A stretch of DNA of 40,283 nt, from the NCBI GenBank assembly GCA_031287585.1, contig JAITST010000030.1, positions 1 to 40,283 on the forward strand, read 5' to 3'. Below the pieces are notes generated by a model. It saw only the letters and a list, made by a program, of their open reading frames with translations, did not search any database and was not told where the DNA came from. The DNA comes from Planctomycetaceae bacterium. GTDB taxonomy: Bacteria > Planctomycetota > Planctomycetia > Pirellulales > Thermoguttaceae. Positions 6,599 through 39,004 of the stretch are shown in pieces. Each line of letters begins with the position of its first letter. Within the stretch, counting starts at the first letter, position 1. A program made the translations under genes and the position numbers.

Positions 6599-8335
6599 TT
6601 ATTGAAACACTATTTTAATTTCGTTCCAATAACCTGCTTCGCAACTCCAGCCGTTAGGTTGATTGAGTAATTCGAGTTTGACCGTTTTTCCGGCGTACTC
6701 CGAAAGATCGACGGAAACGTCTGTCCAGCCGCCGATAATTTGGCGTTTCAATAATTCCTTGCCGTCCGCTTTGACAATCAATTCCCAATCGAATTGGGCT
6801 TTGGCGGCATCGTGAGCGGCAACGACGAGTTTCAGCGTCGGCTTTTTGTCCTTCGGCAATTCAACGGTTTTCGACAAAATACACGGTTCGCCCTTTGCCT
6901 TCGGATGGGTCATCACAACGTCTTTTTTACCGTGATATTGTTTCCGATAACCGGGGTCCATATCGGGACCGCAATCGGTCAGTTTCCAACCGGGGAAGAA
7001 TTTTTCAACGGCTTCGTCGAGTGAATACTCCCGCTTTTCGATTAATTTGTACTCAGCATCGGTGAATTTAGTGTTTTGCGGCAGATCGGGCTTCCAAGCC
7101 GGTTTGTACGGTTTCGGCGAAGTTTGCACTATCGTAATTCTTGGTCGTCCAAAAATGTTACCGCGAACCGTTGCCATGTGTCCCGATGAATTTTGTCTGG
7201 GAATCCAAAAGACCTCTTCGCCATTGCGTTTGACGATTTTTCCGCCGGATTGGAGAACCGCTTGCCGCGCCAGTTTTTCGCAAACGTCAAGCAAGGCGGG
7301 AAAGTTGTATTCCGTGTAACTGAACTTCGTTTTTTCGTCGAGTTTCTCACTGAATCGCGGCGGAAGTTTCGAAAAACCAAGCGTGGTGAACAAAACACCG
7401 CCCGCATTGGACGGATTACAATCGGAATCCTGACCGCATCGGGTCGAAAGAACAATCGTTTGGTCGAGGCCGCCTTTTCCGTACAGTAAGCCGACGAGAA
7501 TGTACGCTCCGTTGATTTTAGCATCAATGTTAAACTTGCCTGTATCACAGGACACACGGCGGTAATCCAGATTTTTCTGATATTTTTCGTCGATTTTATG
7601 CCAACACGTTGTCCAGTCACTTGGGTTTTCGTCGTACCATTTCATAACATCCCGAACCATTTCGGCATACTGCGAATCCGGCGGAATACAATCCAAACCG
7701 GCGGCGATAATTTTTTTAATGTCGGTTTCAAAAAATGCTTCGGCGTACATTCCGCCGACGAATTGTCCGGCATAAATTCCGTCGCCGTAATTCATTAACC
7801 CGCCGAATTTTTCGCCGAGTTCAACAACAACCTTCGGCAAACCGGGAGCGATGAGACCGGAATAATCCGCTTCGATTTGATAATCAATATCGTCAGCGTG
7901 TTTGTTGAATGCCGGATGCCCGCTGTCGGGCGGAGCAATTCCCCGCCGAAGATTTTTGCGTCCGGCATCGTTAGCGTGCCAAAGTTGATAGCCGCTGTTG
8001 GCAAAGTCGATACCTGCTTGCCGTTGTGAAACGTCCAGACCATATTGTTCCATACTGCGCAGAAATGTCATTTCGACGTAAAGGTCGTCCTGACCGAAGG
8101 CGTGATTTATCATTTCCGGTGTCCATTTCGGCATCTTGTCTTCGGGAATGATCGTTCCGTTGAATTTGAACTCAGTTGGAGCTCCCCAACAGACACCGGC
8201 AATTTGTCCGATCCAACCAGCTTTCATTTTGTCGCGGTAATCCTTCACGGAAATCTCGCGGAATTCCTGTGCAATAATTGGAGCCGCCGAAACAATCAGC
8301 AACAGAGCTAAAGTAGTCGATACGAGTTTTTTCAT
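6599..8335 (-). CDS. secreted ADP-ribosylglycohydrolase family protein with extra C-terminal beta-rich domain
   Basis: Start chosen at MKKLVSTTLALLLIVSAAPIIAQ (signal peptide, ATG at 8335). The N-terminal AGWIGQIAGVCWGAPTEF and the late RCGQDSDCNPSNAGGVLF motifs are typical of the DraG/ARH fold. About 170 aa of C-terminal domain remain unassigned. Confidence 0.75.
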   Translation of the reverse strand: MKKLVSTTLALLLIVSAAPIIAQEFREISVKDYRDKMKAGWIGQIAGVCWGAPTEFKFNGTIIPEDKMPKWTPEMINHAFGQDDLYVEMTFLRSMEQYGLDVSQRQAGIDFANSGYQLWHANDAGRKNLRRGIAPPDSGHPAFNKHADDIDYQIEADYSGLIAPGLPKVVVELGEKFGGLMNYGDGIYAGQFVGGMYAEAFFETDIKKIIAAGLDCIPPDSQYAEMVRDVMKWYDENPSDWTTCWHKIDEKYQKNLDYRRVSCDTGKFNIDAKINGAYILVGLLYGKGGLDQTIVLSTRCGQDSDCNPSNAGGVLFTTLGFSKLPPRFSEKLDEKTKFSYTEYNFPALLDVCEKLARQAVLQSGGKIVKRNGEEVFWIPRQNSSGHMATVRGNIFGRPRITIVQTSPKPYKPAWKPDLPQNTKFTDAEYKLIEKREYSLDEAVEKFFPGWKLTDCGPDMDPGYRKQYHGKKDVVMTHPKAKGEPCILSKTVELPKDKKPTLKLVVAAHDAAKAQFDWELIVKADGKELLKRQIIGGWTDVSVDLSEYAGKTVKLELLNQPNGWSCEAGYWNEIKIVFQ

Positions 8336-8634
8336 AAGATATTCCTTTTGTGAGGGGTGAAATGTTTTGAAAACAGCAACCACACTATCACAAATCGTAA
8401 AAATAGCAATACCCTGCGGCACGTCGGAAACAAGTTCATTTCGGTAAATTGATTGCGGTGATGCGTAAACTTTTTATTTTCCGCCTACACACAAAAATTT
8501 TTCACGTTTCCCTTGCGGCATATTGTCAAATTATAATTGTGTGGTAGAATTTAGCGGTCTATTGTTATGTGACGAATGCAAGACGTGTCATTCGTTCAGG
8601 ATATGGTAACCAAAATTAGATACACAACTATTAT

Positions 8635-31976: not shown

Positions 31977-32969
31977 ATGAAAAAATTTATCGCACTGCTA
32001 CTATTCGCCGCCGTTTTTGGTGTTGCTGGTTATTTTGTCTGGCAAAATATGTTTGCGACAAACGCTGGTACGGACAAAACGATGACGCTTTACGGTAATG
32101 TCGAAATTCGCCGTGTCAATCTTGGTTTCAATGTCTTTGGTCAGATTGTTGAAATGCCGTTCAAAGAAGGCGATAAGATTCTCCGCAATTCTGTTGTCGC
32201 GCGGCTTGACCGTCAACCGTATCAGGACGATGTTGAGATTGCCGCCGCGCAAGTCAAACGCGCCGAAGCAAATCTCAAAAAACTGCAAACCGGTAATCGA
32301 CCACAGGAAATCGCACAGGCACACGCAACATTGAACGAACGAATCGCAACTCTTGATGTTCTCAACGCGGAGGTACGGCGGGCGCATCTCTTGATTGACA
32401 AACAAAATATCTCGCCGCAGGAATTTGATAATGTCATCGCAAGCCAAAAAGAAGCGACCGCGCGAAAACAACTTGCGGAGGAAACGTTGAACTTGTTGAT
32501 TGAAGGGTTTCGTCAAGAGGACATTGACGCTGGTGAGGCACAATTTGCCGAAGCGAAAGCGAATCTCAAACGAACGCAAACGCTGCTCGGCTACACAGAA
32601 TTGCATTGTCCCAACGACGGAATTTTGTTGACACGTGTCGAAGAGCCGGGAGCGGTTGTGAATCAGGGGCAGACGGTTTTGGTGCTTTCGCTTCAAGACG
32701 AAGTTTGGGTTTATGTTTATCTGCCCGAACCCGATCTCGGTAAAATCGCCCCCGGTATGAAAGCAAAAATTTACACGGATTCCGCTCCCGATAAACCTTA
32801 CGGCGGGCAAGTCGGCTACATTTCACCCGAAGCGGAATTCACTCCGAAAAATGTTGAAACGCCGCGTCTGCGAACCGACCTTGTCTATCGTGTGCGGATT
32901 ATCGCGGATAATCCCGACGACGGATTACGTCAGGGAATGCCGGTTACTGTTGTGTTAGCGAAAGATTGA
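31977..32969 (+). CDS. HlyD-family periplasmic adaptor (YbhG-like)
   Basis: 330 aa with an N-terminal anchor helix, a coiled-coil hairpin (AAAQVKRAEANLKKLQTGNRPQEIAQA...), a barrel-sandwich (GMKAKIYTDS) and a C-terminal GMPVTV. It lies immediately upstream of a duplicated ABC ATPase. Confidence 0.85.
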   Translation: MKKFIALLLFAAVFGVAGYFVWQNMFATNAGTDKTMTLYGNVEIRRVNLGFNVFGQIVEMPFKEGDKILRNSVVARLDRQPYQDDVEIAAAQVKRAEANLKKLQTGNRPQEIAQAHATLNERIATLDVLNAEVRRAHLLIDKQNISPQEFDNVIASQKEATARKQLAEETLNLLIEGFRQEDIDAGEAQFAEAKANLKRTQTLLGYTELHCPNDGILLTRVEEPGAVVNQGQTVLVLSLQDEVWVYVYLPEPDLGKIAPGMKAKIYTDSAPDKPYGGQVGYISPEAEFTPKNVETPRLRTDLVYRVRIIADNPDDGLRQGMPVTVVLAKD

Positions 32970-32971
32970 AG

Positions 32972-34666
32972 ATGATACACCTCAATCAACTTACCAAACG
33001 TTTCGGCGACAGCGGGCGGGCTGCTCTTGATTCTGTTACCGCCGAAATTCTATCGGGGCATATTACCGGAATTGTCGGTCCCGATGGTGCGGGTAAAACG
33101 ACGCTTGTGCGGTTGCTTGCGGGGTTACTCAAACCGACGACCGGTACCATCGACGTTTCGGAAACGCTGAACATCGGCGACAGGTCGATGCTCGGTTATA
33201 TGCCGCAGCGTTTCGGGTTGTATGAAGATTTAACGGTGCTGGAAAATCTGAATCTTTATGCGGAACTGCGAGGTCTTGAATCGCCGGAACGCAAAGACCG
33301 TTTCGCTCAACTCCTGCAATTCACTGGTCTTGAAGCGTTCACTCAACGTTTGGCGAAACGTTTATCAGGCGGTATGAAACAAAAACTCGGCTTGGCTTGT
33401 GTTCTTATCAAGATGCCGAAGTTGTTGTTGCTTGACGAGCCGGGTGTCGGCGTTGACCCGATCAGCCGCCGCGAACTTTGGCGGATGGTTCGCGAACTTG
33501 TTACCGATGATATTGTTGTTATCTGGAATACCGCCTATCTTGACGAAGCCGAAGCGTGCGACGATGTGTTGCTGCTCAACGAAGGCAAACTGCTTTTTCA
33601 CGGTCAACCGAGTGAACTGACTGGTCGATTGACAAACCGTGTTTTTCAAGTTCGCGGACTCGCGCCAACCGAACGCCGCCGTGAACTTGTCCGGTTAATG
33701 CGCCAACCGGAAATTATTGACGGCGTGATTCAAGGTGATGCGTTACGAATTGTTGTGAGTCAAAATGGATTACGACCCGCGTTACCGTCTGTTACGCTGA
33801 CTCCACCGGCGAGTATCGTTGCGGTAACTCCGCGATTTGAGGACGGTTTTATCGACCTTTTGGGCGGTGTGCCGAAAGGCGATTCGATACTTGCGCGCCA
33901 ACCGGCGAAACAAATCAGCGACGATAAACCGGTTGTCGTTGCCGAAGGACTGACCAAGCGGTTTGGTTCGTTCACGGCGGTACATAATAATTGCTTTTCG
34001 ATTCGGCGCGGCGAGATTTACGGATTGCTGGGACCGAACGGCGCGGGGAAAAGTACAACATTCAAAATGCTTTGCGGTTTGTTGAAACCGACAGACGGGA
34101 ATTGTTTTATTGCCGGTTATAACTTGCGGACATCGCCGTCGCGGGCAAGGTCGCGGCTCGGTTATATGGCTCAAAAGTTTTCGCTGTACAACGATTTAAC
34201 GGTTCGTCAAAACCTGACGTTCTTCGCGGGCATTTACGGTTTGTGGGGGTTTGCGAAACGGCGGGTTGTCAACGAGATGCTTGAAATGTTTGACTTGGGA
34301 CAGTATGCTTCGGCGAATGCGGGTTTATTGCCGTTGGGTTTCAAACAGCGTCTTTCGCTTGCCGCCGCGCTGATGCACGAACCGGATGTGTTGTTTCTTG
34401 ACGAGCCGACTTCCGGTGTTGACCCGCTCACCCGCCGCGAATTTTGGACACATATCAACGCCCTTGTTGAACGCGGTGTTACGATTTTAGTAACGACGCA
34501 TTTTATGGACGAAGCGGAATACTGCGACCGAATCAGTTTGATTTTTCACGGTGAAACGATTGCAACCGGAACGCCCGACAAACTCAAAGAATCCGTCCGC
34601 ACCGGGCAACTTCCAGAGCCGACTTTGGAAGACGCGTTCGTTGCGCTGGTACGCGGCGAACCGTAA
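32972..34666 (+). CDS. ABC transporter ATP-binding protein with two fused ATPase domains (YbhF-like)
   Basis: Has two Walker A motifs (GPDGAGKTT, GPNGAGKST), two signature motifs (LSGGMKQKL, LPLGFKQRL) and two Walker B motifs (LLLLDEP, VLFLDEP). ATG at 32972 is preferred over the TTG at 32966. Confidence 0.9.
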   Translation: MIHLNQLTKRFGDSGRAALDSVTAEILSGHITGIVGPDGAGKTTLVRLLAGLLKPTTGTIDVSETLNIGDRSMLGYMPQRFGLYEDLTVLENLNLYAELRGLESPERKDRFAQLLQFTGLEAFTQRLAKRLSGGMKQKLGLACVLIKMPKLLLLDEPGVGVDPISRRELWRMVRELVTDDIVVIWNTAYLDEAEACDDVLLLNEGKLLFHGQPSELTGRLTNRVFQVRGLAPTERRRELVRLMRQPEIIDGVIQGDALRIVVSQNGLRPALPSVTLTPPASIVAVTPRFEDGFIDLLGGVPKGDSILARQPAKQISDDKPVVVAEGLTKRFGSFTAVHNNCFSIRRGEIYGLLGPNGAGKSTTFKMLCGLLKPTDGNCFIAGYNLRTSPSRARSRLGYMAQKFSLYNDLTVRQNLTFFAGIYGLWGFAKRRVVNEMLEMFDLGQYASANAGLLPLGFKQRLSLAAALMHEPDVLFLDEPTSGVDPLTRREFWTHINALVERGVTILVTTHFMDEAEYCDRISLIFHGETIATGTPDKLKESVRTGQLPEPTLEDAFVALVRGEP

Positions 34667-34672
34667 TCGTAA
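34662..34672. repeat. left copy of the 11-bp direct repeat CGTAATCGTAA flanking the inserted cassette
   Basis: Exact 11-mer that overlaps the ATPase stop codon. The identical 11-mer is at 37835-37845. Confidence 0.85.
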
Positions 34673-34770
34673 CGGAAGTTACAGATAAGCGGCGATTGAA
34701 TGTTGGTTTGTAGAAATTTTGTCAACTTGCCAAATTATACTTGTCCCGTTTGAAAATTGTTTGTGAGGTA

Positions 34771-34799
34771 TTGTACCCTTTCAAAAAATTTGATACAAT
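34771..34799 (+). promoter_or_regulatory. putative promoter of the R-M cassette
   Basis: TTGTAC (34771-34776), a 17-nt spacer, then TACAAT (34794-34799), immediately upstream of the tandem operator-like repeats. Confidence 0.35.
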
Positions 34800-34805
34800 G
34801 ATAAG

Positions 34806-34845
34806 ATATGACTGTGAACAGTTGTATATGACTGTGAACAGTTGT
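34806..34845 (+). promoter_or_regulatory. two exact tandem copies of a 20-bp unit, each containing the palindrome ACTGTGAACAGT (operator-like)
   Basis: atatgactgtgaacagttgt occurs at 34806-34825 and again at 34826-34845. ACTGT..ACAGT is a 5-bp inverted repeat. The site lies between the putative -10 and the methylase ATG at 34930. Confidence 0.6.
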
Positions 34846-34929
34846 ACTGTGTTGTATCTTGAGTTCTCGCAGATGCCCTAATAAACTGTTGCTATAAGAC
34901 GATGAACGGTTCTGCCATTTTTATTTTCA

Positions 34930-36039
34930 ATGAAAAACTACCGAACATTACAGTTCCATAACAGGTATTCAGAAAGCGATATTGTTGTTGGTTTTCAAGT
35001 TTTGAATACCGCGGGAATCCAGACACGGATTAACGAAGATAGTGTTGTCCTTGATTTTGATGTTGTCGATATGAAGTATATCGAAAGACAACAGAGTCAA
35101 ACGGAAGAATTGCTCTCGCACGTTCTCACCGAATTGTTAAAAATCCGTTCGTTTTCCTCTGCTAATGGTAAGATTATTTTCAAAACATTTAACAAAGAAA
35201 AACGTGTTAGCGGTAAAGCCGAAAATAAAAAAAAACGGCTTGGCTATGAATCGTTTCAAAAACATTTTTCAACAGAAAATAATGAAGTGCCGCCGGAGTT
35301 TCTCAATAAAATTATCTGCGCGGATTCTCTCAATCAGTTGGCGCAATTTCCTGATAATTGCGTTGATTTGATTTTCACTTCACCGCCGTATAATTTTGGT
35401 ATCAATTACAATAATACCGATGACGTGAACACTTGGCATGATTATTTTGATATGCTGTTTGCCATTTTCGGCGAGTGTGTCCGCGTGCTGAAAAGCGGCG
35501 GGCGAATAGTCGTGAACATTCAGCCGCTTTATTCTGATTATGTCCCGTCGCATCATCTTGTCAGTAATTTTTTCGTCCAACAGGGTTTGATTTGGAAGGG
35601 CGAAATCATCTGGGAAAAAAATAACTATAACTGCAAGTATTGTACTTGGGGCAGTTGGCAAAGCCCGTCGTCGCCATATTTGAAATATTCTTGGGAATTT
35701 GTTGAAGTATTTTGCAAGAACACGTTGAAAAAAGACGGCGAAAAAGAATACGCCGATATTACCGGCGATGAGTTCAAAAAGTGGGTTTATGGCAAGTGGT
35801 CAATCGCACCGGAGCGAAAAATGAAAGAATATAAACACGATGCAATGTTTCCAGAGGAACTTGCAAAACGTGTCCTCAAACTCTTTTCGTTTCAAAACGA
35901 TATCGTGCTTGACCCGTTCAACGGAGTCGGAACGACAACAAAAGTTGCCCGTTCATTGGGACGGCAATTTATTGGAATTGATATTGACGCAGAATACTGT
36001 AAAACAGCAAGAGGGAGACTTAAAGATGGCTTTTTCTAA
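34930..36039 (+). CDS. beta-class N4/N6 DNA methyltransferase (SPPY type, likely N4-cytosine) with N-terminal extension of about 125 aa
   Basis: Motif IV DLIFTSPPY comes before motif I VLDPFNGVGTT, which is the beta-class order. Also has the FPEELAKRVLKLFS region. The N-terminal 125 aa have no recognised domain. Confidence 0.85.
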   Translation: MKNYRTLQFHNRYSESDIVVGFQVLNTAGIQTRINEDSVVLDFDVVDMKYIERQQSQTEELLSHVLTELLKIRSFSSANGKIIFKTFNKEKRVSGKAENKKKRLGYESFQKHFSTENNEVPPEFLNKIICADSLNQLAQFPDNCVDLIFTSPPYNFGINYNNTDDVNTWHDYFDMLFAIFGECVRVLKSGGRIVVNIQPLYSDYVPSHHLVSNFFVQQGLIWKGEIIWEKNNYNCKYCTWGSWQSPSSPYLKYSWEFVEVFCKNTLKKDGEKEYADITGDEFKKWVYGKWSIAPERKMKEYKHDAMFPEELAKRVLKLFSFQNDIVLDPFNGVGTTTKVARSLGRQFIGIDIDAEYCKTARGRLKDGFF

Positions 36040-36844
36040 CAAAAAAACTTTACAAAAATTTCTGCAACCGCTCATTGAAAAACATGTTCACGCGTCAAAC
36101 ATCGCAAAAAAGTTGAGGGATACTAAACATTCGAAGTTCCTTTTTGAATGTGCAGACCACTATAAAGAATTACATGATTCTTTCCAAGTGGAAAATGTTG
36201 CCAAAATGGTCAAGAACTGGAATATCTATCTGGATTATGTCAGAGAACACAATGAGGGAAAATTCTCTGCTCAGTCAAAATTTGAGCCGACGATATTAGA
36301 AGAGAGTGTTTATCGAATGTTTTCTCACCTTGAAAACGAAATAATAAAAATAGGAACGATCAAAGCATATTCTAACCTGTATTTCTCGCCCGTTGATTTT
36401 GAAAGTTTTCAAAATCAATCAAGAGTGAAAATTAACACCAAAGATCAGGATTTTTCAATCTATAAAAAAGTATCAATACAAGTCAGCGATGCTTCTGGTG
36501 CCGTTGATACTTTTATTCCTGTTGTTGCTATGGAATGTAAAACATATTTAGACAAAACAATGCTTGAAGGAAGTATCGCAACTGCCGAAAAAATCAAACA
36601 AGGAAATCCTTATTGCCGATTTTGTATCATTACTGAATTTTATGACGTTGATAAAAAGGTTGATGTTAAACACTCGCGCATAGACCAAATTTACGTTTTT
36701 CGTAAAAACGCCAAACGCAAATCTGGTATGTCCAGCATTTGTCATGACGTTGTAAAACTACTCTATGACGACACAGTAAAACATCTTGAACAAAAATGGT
36801 CAGATGTGGAGAAAAATATAAAAAGTCGGGGTGTCGTATTATGA
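36026..36844 (+). CDS. putative type II restriction endonuclease (PD-(D/E)xK-like)
   Basis: Start chosen at MAFSNKK (ATG at 36026), which overlaps the methylase 3' end by 14 nt. Has a candidate catalytic pattern DQDF...(about 27 aa)...VVAMECK. The position next to the methylase supports the call, but no specific enzyme family is recognised. Confidence 0.55.
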   Translation: MAFSNKKTLQKFLQPLIEKHVHASNIAKKLRDTKHSKFLFECADHYKELHDSFQVENVAKMVKNWNIYLDYVREHNEGKFSAQSKFEPTILEESVYRMFSHLENEIIKIGTIKAYSNLYFSPVDFESFQNQSRVKINTKDQDFSIYKKVSIQVSDASGAVDTFIPVVAMECKTYLDKTMLEGSIATAEKIKQGNPYCRFCIITEFYDVDKKVDVKHSRIDQIYVFRKNAKRKSGMSSICHDVVKLLYDDTVKHLEQKWSDVEKNIKSRGVVL

Positions 36845-36862
36845 CAATTTTCAATCGTGTTC
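36844..36862. repeat. partial copy (19 bp exact) of repeat family R3
   Basis: acaattttcaatcgtgttc is identical to 12972-12990. It lies between the nuclease stop and the DUF3791 start and is followed by TATATA. Confidence 0.7.
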
Positions 36863-36892
36863 GGTATATAAAACAAGGAAGTCTGTACTGAT

Positions 36893-37129
36893 ATGGAAAC
36901 AAAAACATTAGACAGAGAAGCAGAAAACAGGATAAGTTTCATTACTTATCTGATAGTGGAATTTGCGGAGGCGTTCAAAATGTCTAAACCGAAAGCATAC
37001 CTGTATCTGCAACAGTACGGCGGTTTGGATTTTCTCTACAAACACTGGTGGGCGTTGCATACCGATAGTAAATACTATGCCTTGTTGGATCTGTACGAAG
37101 TTTGCCGTAAAAATGGAGGTTATCGATGA
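36893..37129 (+). CDS. DUF3791-like small protein
   Basis: 78 aa. ISFITYLIVEFAEAFKMSKPKAYLYLQQYGGLDFLYKHWWALHTDSKYYALLDLYEVCRKNGG matches my recollection of the DUF3791 pattern (...efAkxxxxsxxxAxxYLxxyxgxxfLxxxYxxxHtxs...dlxxxCxknGG). Confidence 0.65.
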   Translation: METKTLDREAENRISFITYLIVEFAEAFKMSKPKAYLYLQQYGGLDFLYKHWWALHTDSKYYALLDLYEVCRKNGGYR

Positions 37130-37839
37130 TTGTTTATCACGGCAGTTACATTGAAATCGATGTGATTGATTTGTCTCAATGCGAACCGCATAAAGATTTT
37201 GGACAAGGTTTTTATGTAACGAAATACAAGAAACACGCCGAAACGTGGGCGGCAAGAATCGGTGAAAAACACGAAACAAAAGGCGTTGTAACGGAATTTA
37301 ATTTTCACGAGAGTGCTTTTACAAATAATAAATACAAAGTGTTGCGGTTTGCAGATTATTCCGACGATTGGTTGGATTTTGTTGTCAATAACCGCAACAA
37401 TGAATCGCCTGTGCCGTCTCACGACTATGACATTGTCGAAGGTTATGTTGCCAATGACCGTATTCAAAGGCGTATTGATGATTATCTCGCGGGTATTATT
37501 GATCGCGAAAAGTTCCTCAAAGAATTAGTCTATCACGAACCAACACACCAAATTTGTTTTTGCACAGTTAAATCACTGCAAATGCTCGAAAAAGCGGCTC
37601 GGCATGAGATCAGCAACATAGAAGATATTGCCGATGCAGTGATTGTCGCCCTTGTTACAGAACAATCTAAAACAGAAGCCGAAGCCATTGATATTTTTTA
37701 CAAATCTGTAACTTTTGCGAAATTGACTGAGAAAAACTCCTCTTTGCTTTCTCTGACTTGGAGAGAAATATACAATTTATTCTTACAAGAATTAGAAAAC
37801 AGAACGTGTTGTGAGCATCCTGCTTGCAAGTCATCGTAA
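37126..37839 (+). CDS. DUF3990-like protein with H-Y-E (ADP-ribosyltransferase-like) motif pattern
   Basis: 237 aa. MIVYHGSYIEI...KDFGQGFYVTKYKKHAETWA...WLDFVVNNR...YDIVEGYVANDRI...QICFCT matches the DUF3990 pattern. Its ATGA overlaps the DUF3791 stop, and GGAGG lies 5 nt upstream. The last few codons and the stop lie inside the right 11-bp direct repeat. Confidence 0.7.
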   Translation: MIVYHGSYIEIDVIDLSQCEPHKDFGQGFYVTKYKKHAETWAARIGEKHETKGVVTEFNFHESAFTNNKYKVLRFADYSDDWLDFVVNNRNNESPVPSHDYDIVEGYVANDRIQRRIDDYLAGIIDREKFLKELVYHEPTHQICFCTVKSLQMLEKAARHEISNIEDIADAVIVALVTEQSKTEAEAIDIFYKSVTFAKLTEKNSSLLSLTWREIYNLFLQELENRTCCEHPACKSS

Positions 37840-37845
37840 TCGTAA
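37835..37845. repeat. right copy of the 11-bp direct repeat CGTAATCGTAA
   Basis: Exact match to 34662-34672, 41 nt upstream of the permease ATG. Confidence 0.85.
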
Positions 37846-37885: not shown

Positions 37886-39004
37886 ATGTCCCGAATACGA
37901 CGTTTAATCGCTTTAATGGTCAAGGAAACGCTTCAGGTGAAGCGCGACCCGAGTTGTATTTTGATTGCGTTTGTACTGCCGGTGATATTGTTGTTCATTT
38001 TCGGCTACGGGATTTCGCTTGATATTCGGTATGTCAAACTGGCGGTCGTTCTTGAAGACCATTCGCCGACAGCACAAACTGTTTGGGCATCGCTGCAAGC
38101 AACCGATTACATCACGCCGATTTATTACGCTGACCGTCATTCCGCAGAAGAAGCGATTGTCAACGCCCGTGTTCGCGGATTGCTCGTCATTCCCGACGAT
38201 TTTTCGCAACGCCTTAACGCCGACGGTTTCGCAACACTTCAACTGCTGACCGACGGTGTTGAAACGAATACGGCAACGATTCTTGAAAATTACGTTCGCG
38301 GTACGATTGCGGTTTGGGCGAAACAGCAAAGCCGTGATCACGGAATTGAATATACCGCGCCAACCGACATCCAAAGCCGTGTTTATTTCAATCCCGAACT
38401 CGAAAGCCGCAACGCTTTGATTCCCGGCTCGATTGTTCTCATCATGGCGATTATCGGAACGCTGCTCACGTCGCTCGTTGTTGCGCGAGAGTGGGAACGC
38501 GGTACGATGGAGGCGATGCTGGCGACTCCGATTGCGTCAATCGATATGCTGCTCGGCAAACTTGTTCCGTACTACGTGCTTGGGATGTTGTCGAACGCGG
38601 CTTGTGTTTTGGTTGCGGTTTATCTTTTTCATTTGCCGTTTCGCGGTTCGGCGGCTTCGCTGTTTTTGGTTTCGTCAGTGTTTTTGATTGCGGCACTTGG
38701 ACTTGGCTTTTTAATTTCAACTCTTTGTAAGAATCAGTTTCTTGCATCCCAGTTGGCGCTTGTGTTGGGCTTTTTACCGAACTACATTTTGTCCGGTGCG
38801 TTGTTTGAAATCAATTCAATGCCGTTACCGATTCAATTTTTGACCTATTGTTTTTCAGGACGATACTACGTAACGTGTCTTCAAACGATTTTTATGGTCG
38901 GCGATATTTGGGCGTTGCTTCTTCCGAATATCTTTTTTATGTTTTCGTTAGCAGCGTTGTTTTTTGCAATCACGCTGCGTGTTACACCGACACGGCTCGA
39001 ATAA
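37886..39004 (+). CDS. ABC-2 type transporter permease (YbhS-like)
   Basis: Start chosen at MSRIRRLIALMVKETLQVKRDP, the typical ABC-2 N-terminus. Has a large periplasmic loop followed by 5 TM helices (EWERGTMEAMLATP motif). Confidence 0.85.
   Translation: MSRIRRLIALMVKETLQVKRDPSCILIAFVLPVILLFIFGYGISLDIRYVKLAVVLEDHSPTAQTVWASLQATDYITPIYYADRHSAEEAIVNARVRGLLVIPDDFSQRLNADGFATLQLLTDGVETNTATILENYVRGTIAVWAKQQSRDHGIEYTAPTDIQSRVYFNPELESRNALIPGSIVLIMAIIGTLLTSLVVAREWERGTMEAMLATPIASIDMLLGKLVPYYVLGMLSNAACVLVAVYLFHLPFRGSAASLFLVSSVFLIAALGLGFLISTLCKNQFLASQLALVLGFLPNYILSGALFEINSMPLPIQFLTYCFSGRYYVTCLQTIFMVGDIWALLLPNIFFMFSLAALFFAITLRVTPTRLE

Follow-up and report, generated by a model that had tools for sequence, protein, structure and literature searches.

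A DUF3791/DUF3990 gene pair in a Planctomycete transporter operon as a candidate three-part ADP-ribosyltransferase module of the PDC-M13 family

What might two overlapping genes, carried on a low-GC insertion within a Planctomycete transporter operon, do for the cell that holds them? The genes lie at 36893..37129 (+) and 37126..37839 (+) of a contig from a Planctomycetaceae bacterium (JAITST010000030.1, assembly GCA_031287585.1), of which we analyzed positions 1 to 40,283 (40,283 nt; hereafter "the window"), and they encode a 78-aa DUF3791 protein and a 237-aa DUF3990 protein. A preliminary description of this DNA had proposed a two-part toxin-antitoxin or defense module built around a PARP/DarT-type ADP-ribosyltransferase (ART) and placed beside a restriction-modification (R-M) pair. 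Our analysis leads to a modified answer, to which we give somewhat better than even credence: the pair is an intact copy of a mobile, three-component toxin-antitoxin-like or abortive-infection module of the PDC-M13 family, with an ART effector restrained by small parts.

Both domain assignments lie far above the Pfam cut-offs, in agreement with the preliminary description. The 78-aa protein matches DUF3791 (PF12668) at 9.8e-18 and 64.3 bits against a cut-off of 25, over profile positions 2-60 of 60; residues 1-155 of the 237-aa protein match DUF3990 (PF13151) at 5e-47 and 159.8 bits against a cut-off of 32.2, over profile positions 1-151 of 152. Among PADLOC models, the small protein matches PDC-M13A (3.7e-14), the enzyme domain of the larger protein matches PDC-M13B (2.9e-49) and PDC-M10A (6e-39), and residues 165-225 match models of proteins of about 75 aa (PDC-M13C, 4e-7/PDC-M13B small-protein model). 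The PADLOC matches of the pair are confined to PDC-M13, M10 and M42; no NCBIfam model matches either protein, and PHROGs returned weak matches only, all of unknown function. An exact-match look-up of the window protein gave no entry among public assemblies. PDC-M13 is one of 145 PDC candidates, described by their authors as untested; it was defined as a three-family cassette (FAM_00109, FAM_00403, FAM_00080) with two gene orders, and its nomination rested on finding such genes within type I R-M, BREX or DISARM operons (Payne et al., bioRxiv 10.1101/2024.01.29.577857). In the window the three families adjoin on the same strand, the third as a domain fused to the enzyme, where we infer the correspondence between FAM numbers and domains from the common M10/M13 matches. 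The suggestion of a small toxin-antitoxin or defense module thus coincides with a catalogued candidate, but the system has three parts rather than two.

The preliminary description had read three motifs of the DUF3990 protein, VYHGS (residues 3-7), GQGFYVT (residues 26-32) and YDIVEGYV (residues 101-108), as the H-Y-E triad of an ART. In the close subfamily H5 (37138-37140), Y30 (37213-37215), D102 (37429-37431) and E105 (37438-37440; all on the + strand) are all invariant. We therefore turn to a wider set of 119 aligned representatives of 50%-identity clusters, 33-61% identical to the query and drawn from 2535 clusters at E<=1e-3. Here H5 is retained in 112 sequences (94%), Y30 in 118 (99%) and D102 in 115 (97%), whereas E105 is retained in 58 (49%) and is replaced by C, V, G, F, Y, L, I, M or K in distant members from viral contigs and plasmids. 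Comparable conservation is seen at G6 (113), D24 (117), F25 (117), R90 (116), G106 (114), D111 (110) and Q142 (111). With D102 conserved and E105 variable family-wide, the family signature becomes H-Y-D: HGS ... GxGFYVT ... [YF]D[IV][IV]xG. The His and Tyr of the proposed triad are thus supported and its Glu is not; the triad is probably H5-Y30-D102, with E105 probably the wrong residue.

This assignment agrees with the motif pattern of the H-Y-[E/D/Q] clade of ARTs, in which the front edge of strand 5 carries motif III, either Gln or an acidic residue (PMC7955679). In our structural model, H5-G6-S7 supplies motif I (H-x-[ST], strand 1) within predicted strand 2-7, Y30 of GQGFYVT supplies motif II (Tyr, strand 2) within strand 29-32, and D102 stands directly before strand 103-106 in the place of motif III, where it would be the equivalent of the catalytic Glu. 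The likeness of "EGYV" to the PARP "EYxV" is due to Y107 (37444-37446, +), a substitution found only in the window copy: all 67 close relatives have Pro at this position, as do 82 of the 119 wider representatives.

As a family classification, the ART assignment is well supported. Pfam places DUF3990 in its ART clan (PMC7955679), and DUF3990 occupies the C-terminal toxin position of Rhs proteins associated with type VI secretion systems (T6SS; PMC4524185, PMC10763514, PMC12165300). A secondary match to ART-PolyVal (PF18760), covering the His and Tyr motifs, occurs in 65 of 68 close homologues (best 2.6e-6). The AlphaFold2 model of the 237-aa protein, built from an alignment of 68 sequences (mean predicted local distance difference test score, pLDDT, 87.4; predicted template modelling score 0.65), shows an alpha/beta region at residues 1-157, with strands 2-7, 29-32, 54-60, 72-74, 103-106 and 142-145, followed by a helical region at residues 157-229. 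On the combined evidence of Pfam, the model, Foldseek and conservation, we designate residues 1-157 (37126..37596, +) a predicted ART-fold effector domain. A fold search against BFVD viral models found as its best match an unnamed protein (2.5e-12, 25% identity), which appears to be a viral relative of DUF3990, followed by polyvalent/ART-PolyVal proteins (5.6e-4 to 0.2), the rifampin ART Arr (E 0.15) and an iridovirus PARP-like protein. Taken by themselves, our structure and hidden Markov model (HMM) searches weakly support an ART fold.

The narrower affiliation with PARP or DarT fared less well. PARP (PF00644) has no match in the window protein at E up to 0.1 and lies outside the 25 most-matched families of the 68 homologues; DarT, RES, Arr (Arr-ms) and PTS_2-RNA are absent from the Pfam matches of the window protein and from the families listed for those homologues. 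Neither protein of the pair matches DarT (DUF4433) or Macro in Pfam, which places the pair outside DarTG, and the protein falls outside Tpt1/KptA, having no PTS_2-RNA match and a Tyr, not a His, in its second motif. What remains of the original claim is membership of the ART superfamily, as given by the Pfam clan and the ART-PolyVal matches, with no PARP, DarT or Tpt1 affiliation and no macrodomain partner.

The two genes are joined by an ATGA overlap (37126..37129, +), in which the ATG at 37126-37128 overlies the TGA at 37127-37129, indicating translational coupling. A Shine-Dalgarno (SD)-like GGAGG (37115..37119, +) lies within the Asn-Gly-Gly codons of the DUF3791 gene, 6 nt 5' of the DUF3990 ATG. 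Both features had been pointed out before; the open reading frames (ORFs) bear them out, and they recur across the family. A profile of the 68 homologues yielded 547 confirmed loci in one-genome-per-species contigs, of which we kept the best 80. These come mainly from Bacteroidia represented by insect-gut-type metagenome-assembled genomes (MAGs), with some Planctomycetaceae, Flavobacteriaceae and others, and wherever both ends are on the contig a DUF3791 ORF stands directly 5' of the DUF3990 gene. In 80 of 81 related pairs the DUF3791 and DUF3990 genes overlap or abut: the overlap is 4 nt long at 51 junctions and 1 nt long at 26, the genes of 3 pairs abut, and those of a single pair are separated by 28 nt.

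The GGAGG is conserved beyond what the protein would require. DUF3791 proteins end in an invariant Asn-Gly-Gly-x-Arg, and in 74 of 85 DUF3791 genes, mostly from Bacteroidia, the Asn-Gly-Gly codons spell GGAGG. Across these 85 genes, GGA encodes the first Gly in 87% of cases, against 34% GGA at other Gly codons of the same genes, and the second Gly codon, next to GGA, varies freely among all four synonyms. The binomial p-value for the GGA preference is inflated by the kinship of the sequences; the contrast with the neighboring codon is the fair internal control. The bias at the first Gly beside a free second Gly codon argues that GGAGG is selected at the nucleotide level, which is consistent with SD-assisted translational coupling from DUF3791 to DUF3990. 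To our knowledge, Bacteroidia generally do without SD initiation, and the pattern suggests SD-dependent re-initiation inside the coupled pair even in these bacteria. If true, the module would be a natural probe of SD-dependent re-initiation in the phylum to which Bacteroidia belong.

The larger protein carries the third part of the module in cis: a C-terminal helical domain, which we call X (residues 158-229; 37597..37812, +), delimited from PADLOC and HMM matches and from the model. X has no Pfam family, and it recurs in other arrangements. On a Moraxella osloensis plasmid (NZ_CP069435.1, 4454-7602; locus L130) the order is HsdM > DUF3990 > X (83 aa) > DUF3791 > HsdS, a type I R-M operon with a 4-nt overlap at every junction (X HMM match 5.8e-11), and on a Clostridium botulinum plasmid (L132) it is DUF3791 > DUF3990 > X (77 aa; X HMM match 4.4e-8). 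A 7.6-kb plasmid of Phocaeicola vulgatus (NZ_AP025236.1, 3555-4004; L131) encodes a 149-aa X-DUF3791 fusion with X N-terminal (X 2e-8, DUF3791 7e-7), annotated as DUF3791 only. The X HMM, derived from the window subfamily, also matches free-standing small ORFs beside DUF3990 in viral contigs, and the DUF3990 genes next to a free X are shorter than that of the window. This occurrence of X as a free protein, fused to the enzyme or fused to DUF3791 is a Rosetta-stone pattern that argues the three parts act together physically. In a further viral case, an IMG/VR contig (L105, 5738-6784), DUF3990 is flanked by two small ORFs, and the three directly follow the gene for a 1678-aa protein; its size and sequence suggest a tape-measure protein, which would make this a typical prophage moron position. 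The two small ORFs look by eye like DUF3791 and X, with no match to our HMMs at E<=0.01; since narrow HMMs missed them, "solo" viral DUF3990 genes are probably not solo.

X and DUF3791 may themselves be distant relatives. In hhalign comparisons the E-value was 0.28 for narrow alignments and, for a local match, 0.027 once the alignments were broadened, and one free-standing X protein has a sub-threshold Pfam DUF3791 match (0.0012), which is suggestive of kinship without establishing it. The three parts evolve at different rates: mean pairwise identity (3160 comparisons, 80 pairs) is 61.8% in DUF3791, 56.3% in the enzyme domain and 43.0% in X, making DUF3791 the most conserved part and X the fastest-evolving. 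Mirror-tree style correlations among the three are similar (0.40-0.48) and do not discriminate interacting parts.

DUF3791 is the putative neutralising or regulatory partner. Its AlphaFold2 model is a four-helix structure (pLDDT 91.6) with no significant fold match in the PDB (best E 2.3), and an Rfam scan for an RNA antitoxin gave a chance-level match only (E 0.65). As in type II toxin-antitoxin systems generally, the small partner gene adjoins the larger one, is co-translated, and belongs to a mobile, multi-copy unit; the DNA-binding, autoregulatory antitoxin of those systems has no recognisable counterpart in DUF3791.

The module is also widely spread. Among the best 80 loci, 10 of 67 assemblies carry 2-3 copies, and there are tandem duplications and extra DUF3791 copies (88 DUF3791 against 83 DUF3990 ORFs). 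Relatives occur in 85 plasmid records (Bacteroides 42, Clostridium 16, Parabacteroides 8, Phocaeicola 8, Moraxella 5), including a 7.6-kb plasmid and others of 17-23 kb, and in a few phage records. The use of DUF3990 as the C-terminal domain of T6SS-associated Rhs proteins, together with the DUF3791 copies that lack a cognate DUF3990 in several loci, would fit an orphan polymorphic-toxin/immunity cassette, derived from Rhs/T6SS effectors and kept for immunity against the toxins of neighbors. We consider this very unlikely, as the window protein begins with the enzyme domain and has no pre-toxin or trafficking region, no Rhs/T6SS genes lie nearby, and the small gene is upstream and coupled, whereas polymorphic-toxin immunity genes normally follow the toxin; furthermore, stand-alone proteins 150-250 aa in length make up most of the top 150 family representatives.

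The genomic settings of related pairs are diverse. The pair is co-directional with its upstream neighbor in 48 of 68 cases (median gap 81 nt) and with both sides in 28 of 61, and most relatives sit in housekeeping operons. Around 79 related pairs we surveyed two genes per side (258 ORFs, crudely called as the longest non-overlapping ones) and obtained 161 different Pfam families on one side and 188 on the other, with no recurrent partner; the commonest were AAA_14/DUF4143 (5), RlaP (3), HepT/MNT (2) and Por_Secre_tail (6). These settings bear on the possibility that DUF3990 is a non-toxic NAD+-dependent enzyme, either an Arr-like small-molecule ART acting on an antibiotic or xenobiotic or a Tpt1/KptA-like RNA 2'-phosphotransferase, with the small proteins as its subunits or specificity factors. 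An H-Y-D triad is compatible with small-molecule ARTs, Arr is among the BFVD matches, the conservation of DUF3791 is that expected of a functional subunit and not of an arms-race antitoxin, and many copies are co-directional inside metabolic operons. On the other hand, Pfam gives neither an Arr-ms nor a PTS_2-RNA match, the neighbors share no common pathway, and the multi-copy, tandem, plasmid- and prophage-borne occurrence and the use as an Rhs toxin tip fit conflict systems better; we judge this explanation unlikely.

In the toxin-antitoxin-like or abortive-infection module that we favor, the steps would be as follows. The module, accompanied by a type II R-M pair, would have moved into the ABC-transporter operon of a Planctomycete. 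The effector would be the N-terminal domain of the 237-aa protein, a member of the ART superfamily and its H-Y-[E/D/Q] clade with the triad H5/Y30/D102, using NAD+ for ADP-ribosylation or depleting it and so causing growth arrest. DUF3791 would be produced in fixed proportion through SD-assisted coupling, DUF3791 and domain X would bind the enzyme and hold it inactive, and a trigger, phage infection or loss of the element, would release it. A more specific version, which we regard as rather unlikely, makes DUF3990 the founder of an uncharacterised H-Y-D branch of ARTs that works as a three-part sensor-effector: X would be a cis autoinhibitory sensor, DUF3791 an obligatory adaptor, chaperone or substrate mimic instead of a classical antitoxin, and the activated enzyme would ADP-ribosylate nucleic acid or the translation machinery, aborting infection.

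Several results weigh against the toxin-antitoxin-like reading. The Foldseek search that the preliminary description had proposed did place ART folds at the top of the PDB matches, namely the ADP-ribosylating toxin ParT (6D0H/6D0I) and the PARP domain of tankyrase-2, but none was significant (E 0.23-0.9, TM 0.34-0.49). The ART-PolyVal match of the window protein itself (E 0.0018, residues 1-53) scores 19.5 bits against a Pfam cut-off of 31.2 and is thus sub-threshold, and a PDB sequence search with the protein and the 68-sequence profile found no solved ART, the matches being at chance level (RNase Ms 0.35, CagD 0.15). DUF3791 has no helix-turn-helix (HTH) or ribbon-helix-helix Pfam match and no recognisable DNA-binding or known antitoxin fold. 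Antitoxins of type II systems typically diverge faster than their toxins, so the finding that DUF3791 is the most constrained part counts against a simple equation of DUF3791 with an antitoxin. The gene order is permuted in the Moraxella plasmid. Finally, the searchable literature holds no report of toxicity, NAD+ use or phage protection for any family member and none of experiments on DUF3791 or DUF3990, the latter in line with the earlier statement that neither family has an experimentally defined function.

Two further points against it concern the window copy in particular. Y107 lies two residues past the predicted catalytic strand, and the protein ends in a non-conserved 12-residue tail, RTCCEHPACKSS, which together with the stop codon spans 37801..37839 (+). 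The tail, recognised from the alignment, the model and the end of nucleotide homology, is lacking in all relatives and is modelled with pLDDT <50, and the ORF here runs into the insertion junction. With Y107 and this aberrant tail, the window copy could have attenuated or altered activity. Taken further, the window module might be an inactive or attenuated hitch-hiking passenger, whatever the family does elsewhere. The replacement of an otherwise invariant Pro and of the native C-terminus by junction-derived residues speaks for this, as does a scan for promoters and terminators, which against shuffled sequences stayed within the range of chance, with promoter-like signals below the shuffle mean and terminator-like ones about 1.5 standard deviations above it. 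Yet both ORFs are full length, the family-invariant residues are intact except for P107, the coupling signals are intact, and the DUF3791 protein is 95% identical to its nearest relative. Accelerated decay of the window DUF3990 was considered and rejected: its private substitutions number 5, and those of the four closest relatives range from 4 to 13. We regard a passenger as improbable, and an intact module as the better description of this copy.

How did the module reach this genome? GC content falls to 34-42% from about 34700 to about 37850, against about 50% in the flanks, marking a cassette of 3.2 kb. The two junctions carry the only two copies in the window of an 11-nt direct repeat, CGTAATCGTAA: the left copy (34662..34672), at the left insertion edge, contains the stop codon of the preceding ABC ATPase gene, and the right copy (37835..37845), at the right edge, supplies the stop codon of the DUF3990 gene. 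A shared 11-mer arose in only 6 of 20000 shuffles of the two junction windows. The single pair of flanking repeats suggests that four genes, the R-M pair and the DUF pair, arrived together, apparently by horizontal transfer into the Planctomycete from Bacteroidia-type donors. Alignment of the five closest loci revealed no conserved inverted repeats or att-like ends around the DUF pair; among these loci, homology runs from the ATG of DUF3791 to a point some 35 nt short of the stop. Three other loci from Planctomycetaceae MAGs (L002, L043, L052) hold pairs only 51-58% identical to the window pair. This suggests repeated independent acquisitions by Planctomycetaceae from Bacteroidia-type donors in the same habitats.

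The interrupted host operon can still be recognised on both sides. Directly 5' of the insertion is a YbhF-like, double-ABC transporter ATPase gene (32966..34666, +; Pfam ABC_tran 2.4e-59), whose best named relatives (66-76% identity) are from Thermoguttaceae and Planctomycetaceae MAGs, and 3' of it is an ABC-2 permease gene (37886..39004, +; Pfam ABC2_membrane_3 1.4e-45). The flanks comprise the ABC ATPase and two ABC-2 permeases, with an HlyD-like gene farther 5'. The closest relative (L081) has an uninterrupted form of the site: on its contig, 78 nt separate the ATPase gene from that for the first permease. Alignment of the permease N-terminus MSRIRRLIALMVKE with its L081 counterpart MNTRLRRLLALMKKE makes the ATG at 37886 the most likely start, in place of the mechanically listed GTG at 37811.

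The 5' part of the cassette consists of an AT-rich leader (34673..34929, +), in which GC drops, and the R-M genes. Within the leader the 20-mer ATATGACTGTGAACAGTTGT is present as a perfect tandem pair (34806-34845) and recurs in degenerate form (75%) at 34894-34913; the R-M unit could use this repeat as an operator or for regulation. The first R-M gene encodes a type II DNA methyltransferase (MTase) of the N6_N4_Mtase family with a TSPPY motif (34930..36039, +; PF01555 1.8e-43, PADLOC MTase_II 5.6e-68); it is 79% identical at the nucleotide level to locus L088. The second encodes a Bpu10I-like restriction endonuclease (REase; about 36026..36844, +; PF09549 2.9e-25). A mechanically called ORF at 35840-36844 (+; 334 aa) overlaps the MTase gene by 200 nt; the more likely start is the ATG at 36026 (MAFSNKK...), which gives a 14-nt overlap with the MTase stop. 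The Bpu10I system has two MTases and two REase subunits, and the cassette has one MTase and one Bpu10I-like subunit only. An imperfect 25-nt inverted repeat (76% complementary; 34736-34760 and 36844-36868) brackets the R-M genes almost exactly, its right arm beginning with the final base of the stop codon of the REase gene. The repeat may be the mark of an earlier mobile unit that carried the R-M genes, or AT-rich DNA may have produced it by chance.

The preliminary description had placed the pair in an inserted cassette downstream of an R-M system and saw in this the logic of defense islands. The low-GC insertion and the R-M genes directly upstream are as described, but the adjacency is not conserved. 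REase relatives of 55-60% identity occur in 17 metagenome loci, and the DUF pair in 0 of these 17. Nucleotide homology of the pair is confined to 36891-37804, that of the R-M genes traces to other loci, and none spans the junction. PADLOC matches among the 258 neighbors of related pairs are sparse (raw counts: PDC-S01 5, and single matches to REase_II, MTase_II, DRT and other PDC models), and the closest relatives of the pair (78-81% identity) lie inside SusC/SusD polysaccharide-utilisation loci or beside an MNT gene, with R-M genes in none. The rarity or absence of R-M genes at the loci of relatives makes the adjacency particular to this cassette. Nor does the window show the context for which PDC-M13 was nominated, a type I R-M, BREX or DISARM operon; this copy follows a type II MTase and REase in an ABC-transporter operon.

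An integrated defense island, in which the ART module would be an R-M-dependent second-line effector or would have been selected for its co-localization with R-M, is therefore distinctly unlikely in our assessment. In its favor, the four genes share one strand, a single insertion and one direct-repeat pair, there is no terminator-like site between the REase and DUF3791 genes, and PDC-M13 relatives are embedded in type I R-M, BREX or DISARM loci, as on the Moraxella plasmid, with its pair inside a type I R-M operon. The separate origins of the pair and R-M homologies, the 17 REase loci that lack the pair, the single REase_II and MTase_II matches and the SusC/SusD setting of the closest relatives all stand against it.

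Far from the cassette, the window also holds a 607-aa protein (6599-8422, -) with an ADP-ribosylglycohydrolase domain (PF03747, 4.3e-27), a potential eraser of ADP-ribosylation. We considered a link between this gene and the module and found no evidence for one; it lies 29 kb away among housekeeping genes for SecA, Dxs and phosphoglucomutase.

Neither the ART idea nor the defense idea is new: both were already catalogued, and the window module is accordingly a new member of a known, uncharacterised class. What the comparison adds is a change of the predicted catalytic residue from E105 to D102, the three-part architecture with its informative fusions, and a coupling signal conserved at the codon level. 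The window itself is a clean example of horizontal transfer and otherwise an ordinary representative of its family. The corrected residues and the architecture sharpen mutagenesis and toxicity work. The DUF3990 family is very common, as the number of its 50%-identity clusters indicates, and among the systems predicted in rumen genomes PDC-M13 ranks with the commonest (3324 calls; PMC13356809). If the family is an active ART toxin or defense system, it would form a large new branch of NAD+-dependent bacterial immunity beside DarTG, ParST and RES toxins.

Among known systems, ParS-ParT and Xre-RES share with the window module a small upstream gene that overlaps a downstream gene for an enzyme of ART fold (in the window, of predicted ART fold), as well as mobility and multiple copies, and ParT (6D0H) is the top PDB fold match of the window model, a match that is not significant (E 0.23). 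ParT and RES toxins act on Prs or NAD+. The window proteins, in contrast, have no RES or Xre/DUF2384 Pfam match, a predicted H-Y-D instead of an R-E-S triad, a partner without an HTH-like fold, and a third component. DarTG, in which the DNA ADP-ribosyltransferase DarT is paired with the macrodomain antitoxin DarG, has an ART as an intracellular toxin in a defense or toxin-antitoxin context, and the module, with its predicted H-Y-[E/D]-clade ART, may work in the same way; however, the toxin gene comes first in DarTG, the window has neither a DUF4433 match nor a macrodomain partner, and DarG reverses the modification enzymatically, whereas here small helical proteins would neutralise the toxin.

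Other likenesses concern single features. ART-PolyVal is the closest named ART family by sequence, but it forms part of giant proteins that have many domains and are delivered along with DNA, whereas the window has a stand-alone domain of 160 aa with small partners. Rhs/T6SS effectors such as Serratia Rhs5 and Enterobacter bugandensis RhsA carry DUF3990 in the toxin position; they are exported and have a downstream immunity gene, unlike the cytoplasmic, stand-alone window domain with its coupled upstream partner. CapRel-SJ46 is reportedly a fused toxin-antitoxin defense protein, with an enzymatic toxin domain and a small domain in one polypeptide; the window protein similarly has a putative toxin domain and, C-terminal to it, a small domain that evolves fast and that relatives encode separately, although the enzyme families are unrelated and an autoinhibitory or sensor role of X is here purely hypothetical. 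With PDC-M13 (and PDC-M10) the correspondence extends to the whole module: all three families match, and the genes lie on the same strand and are tightly coupled. The window copy differs in that X is fused to the enzyme instead of forming a separate gene, and in its place beside a type II R-M pair within a transporter operon.

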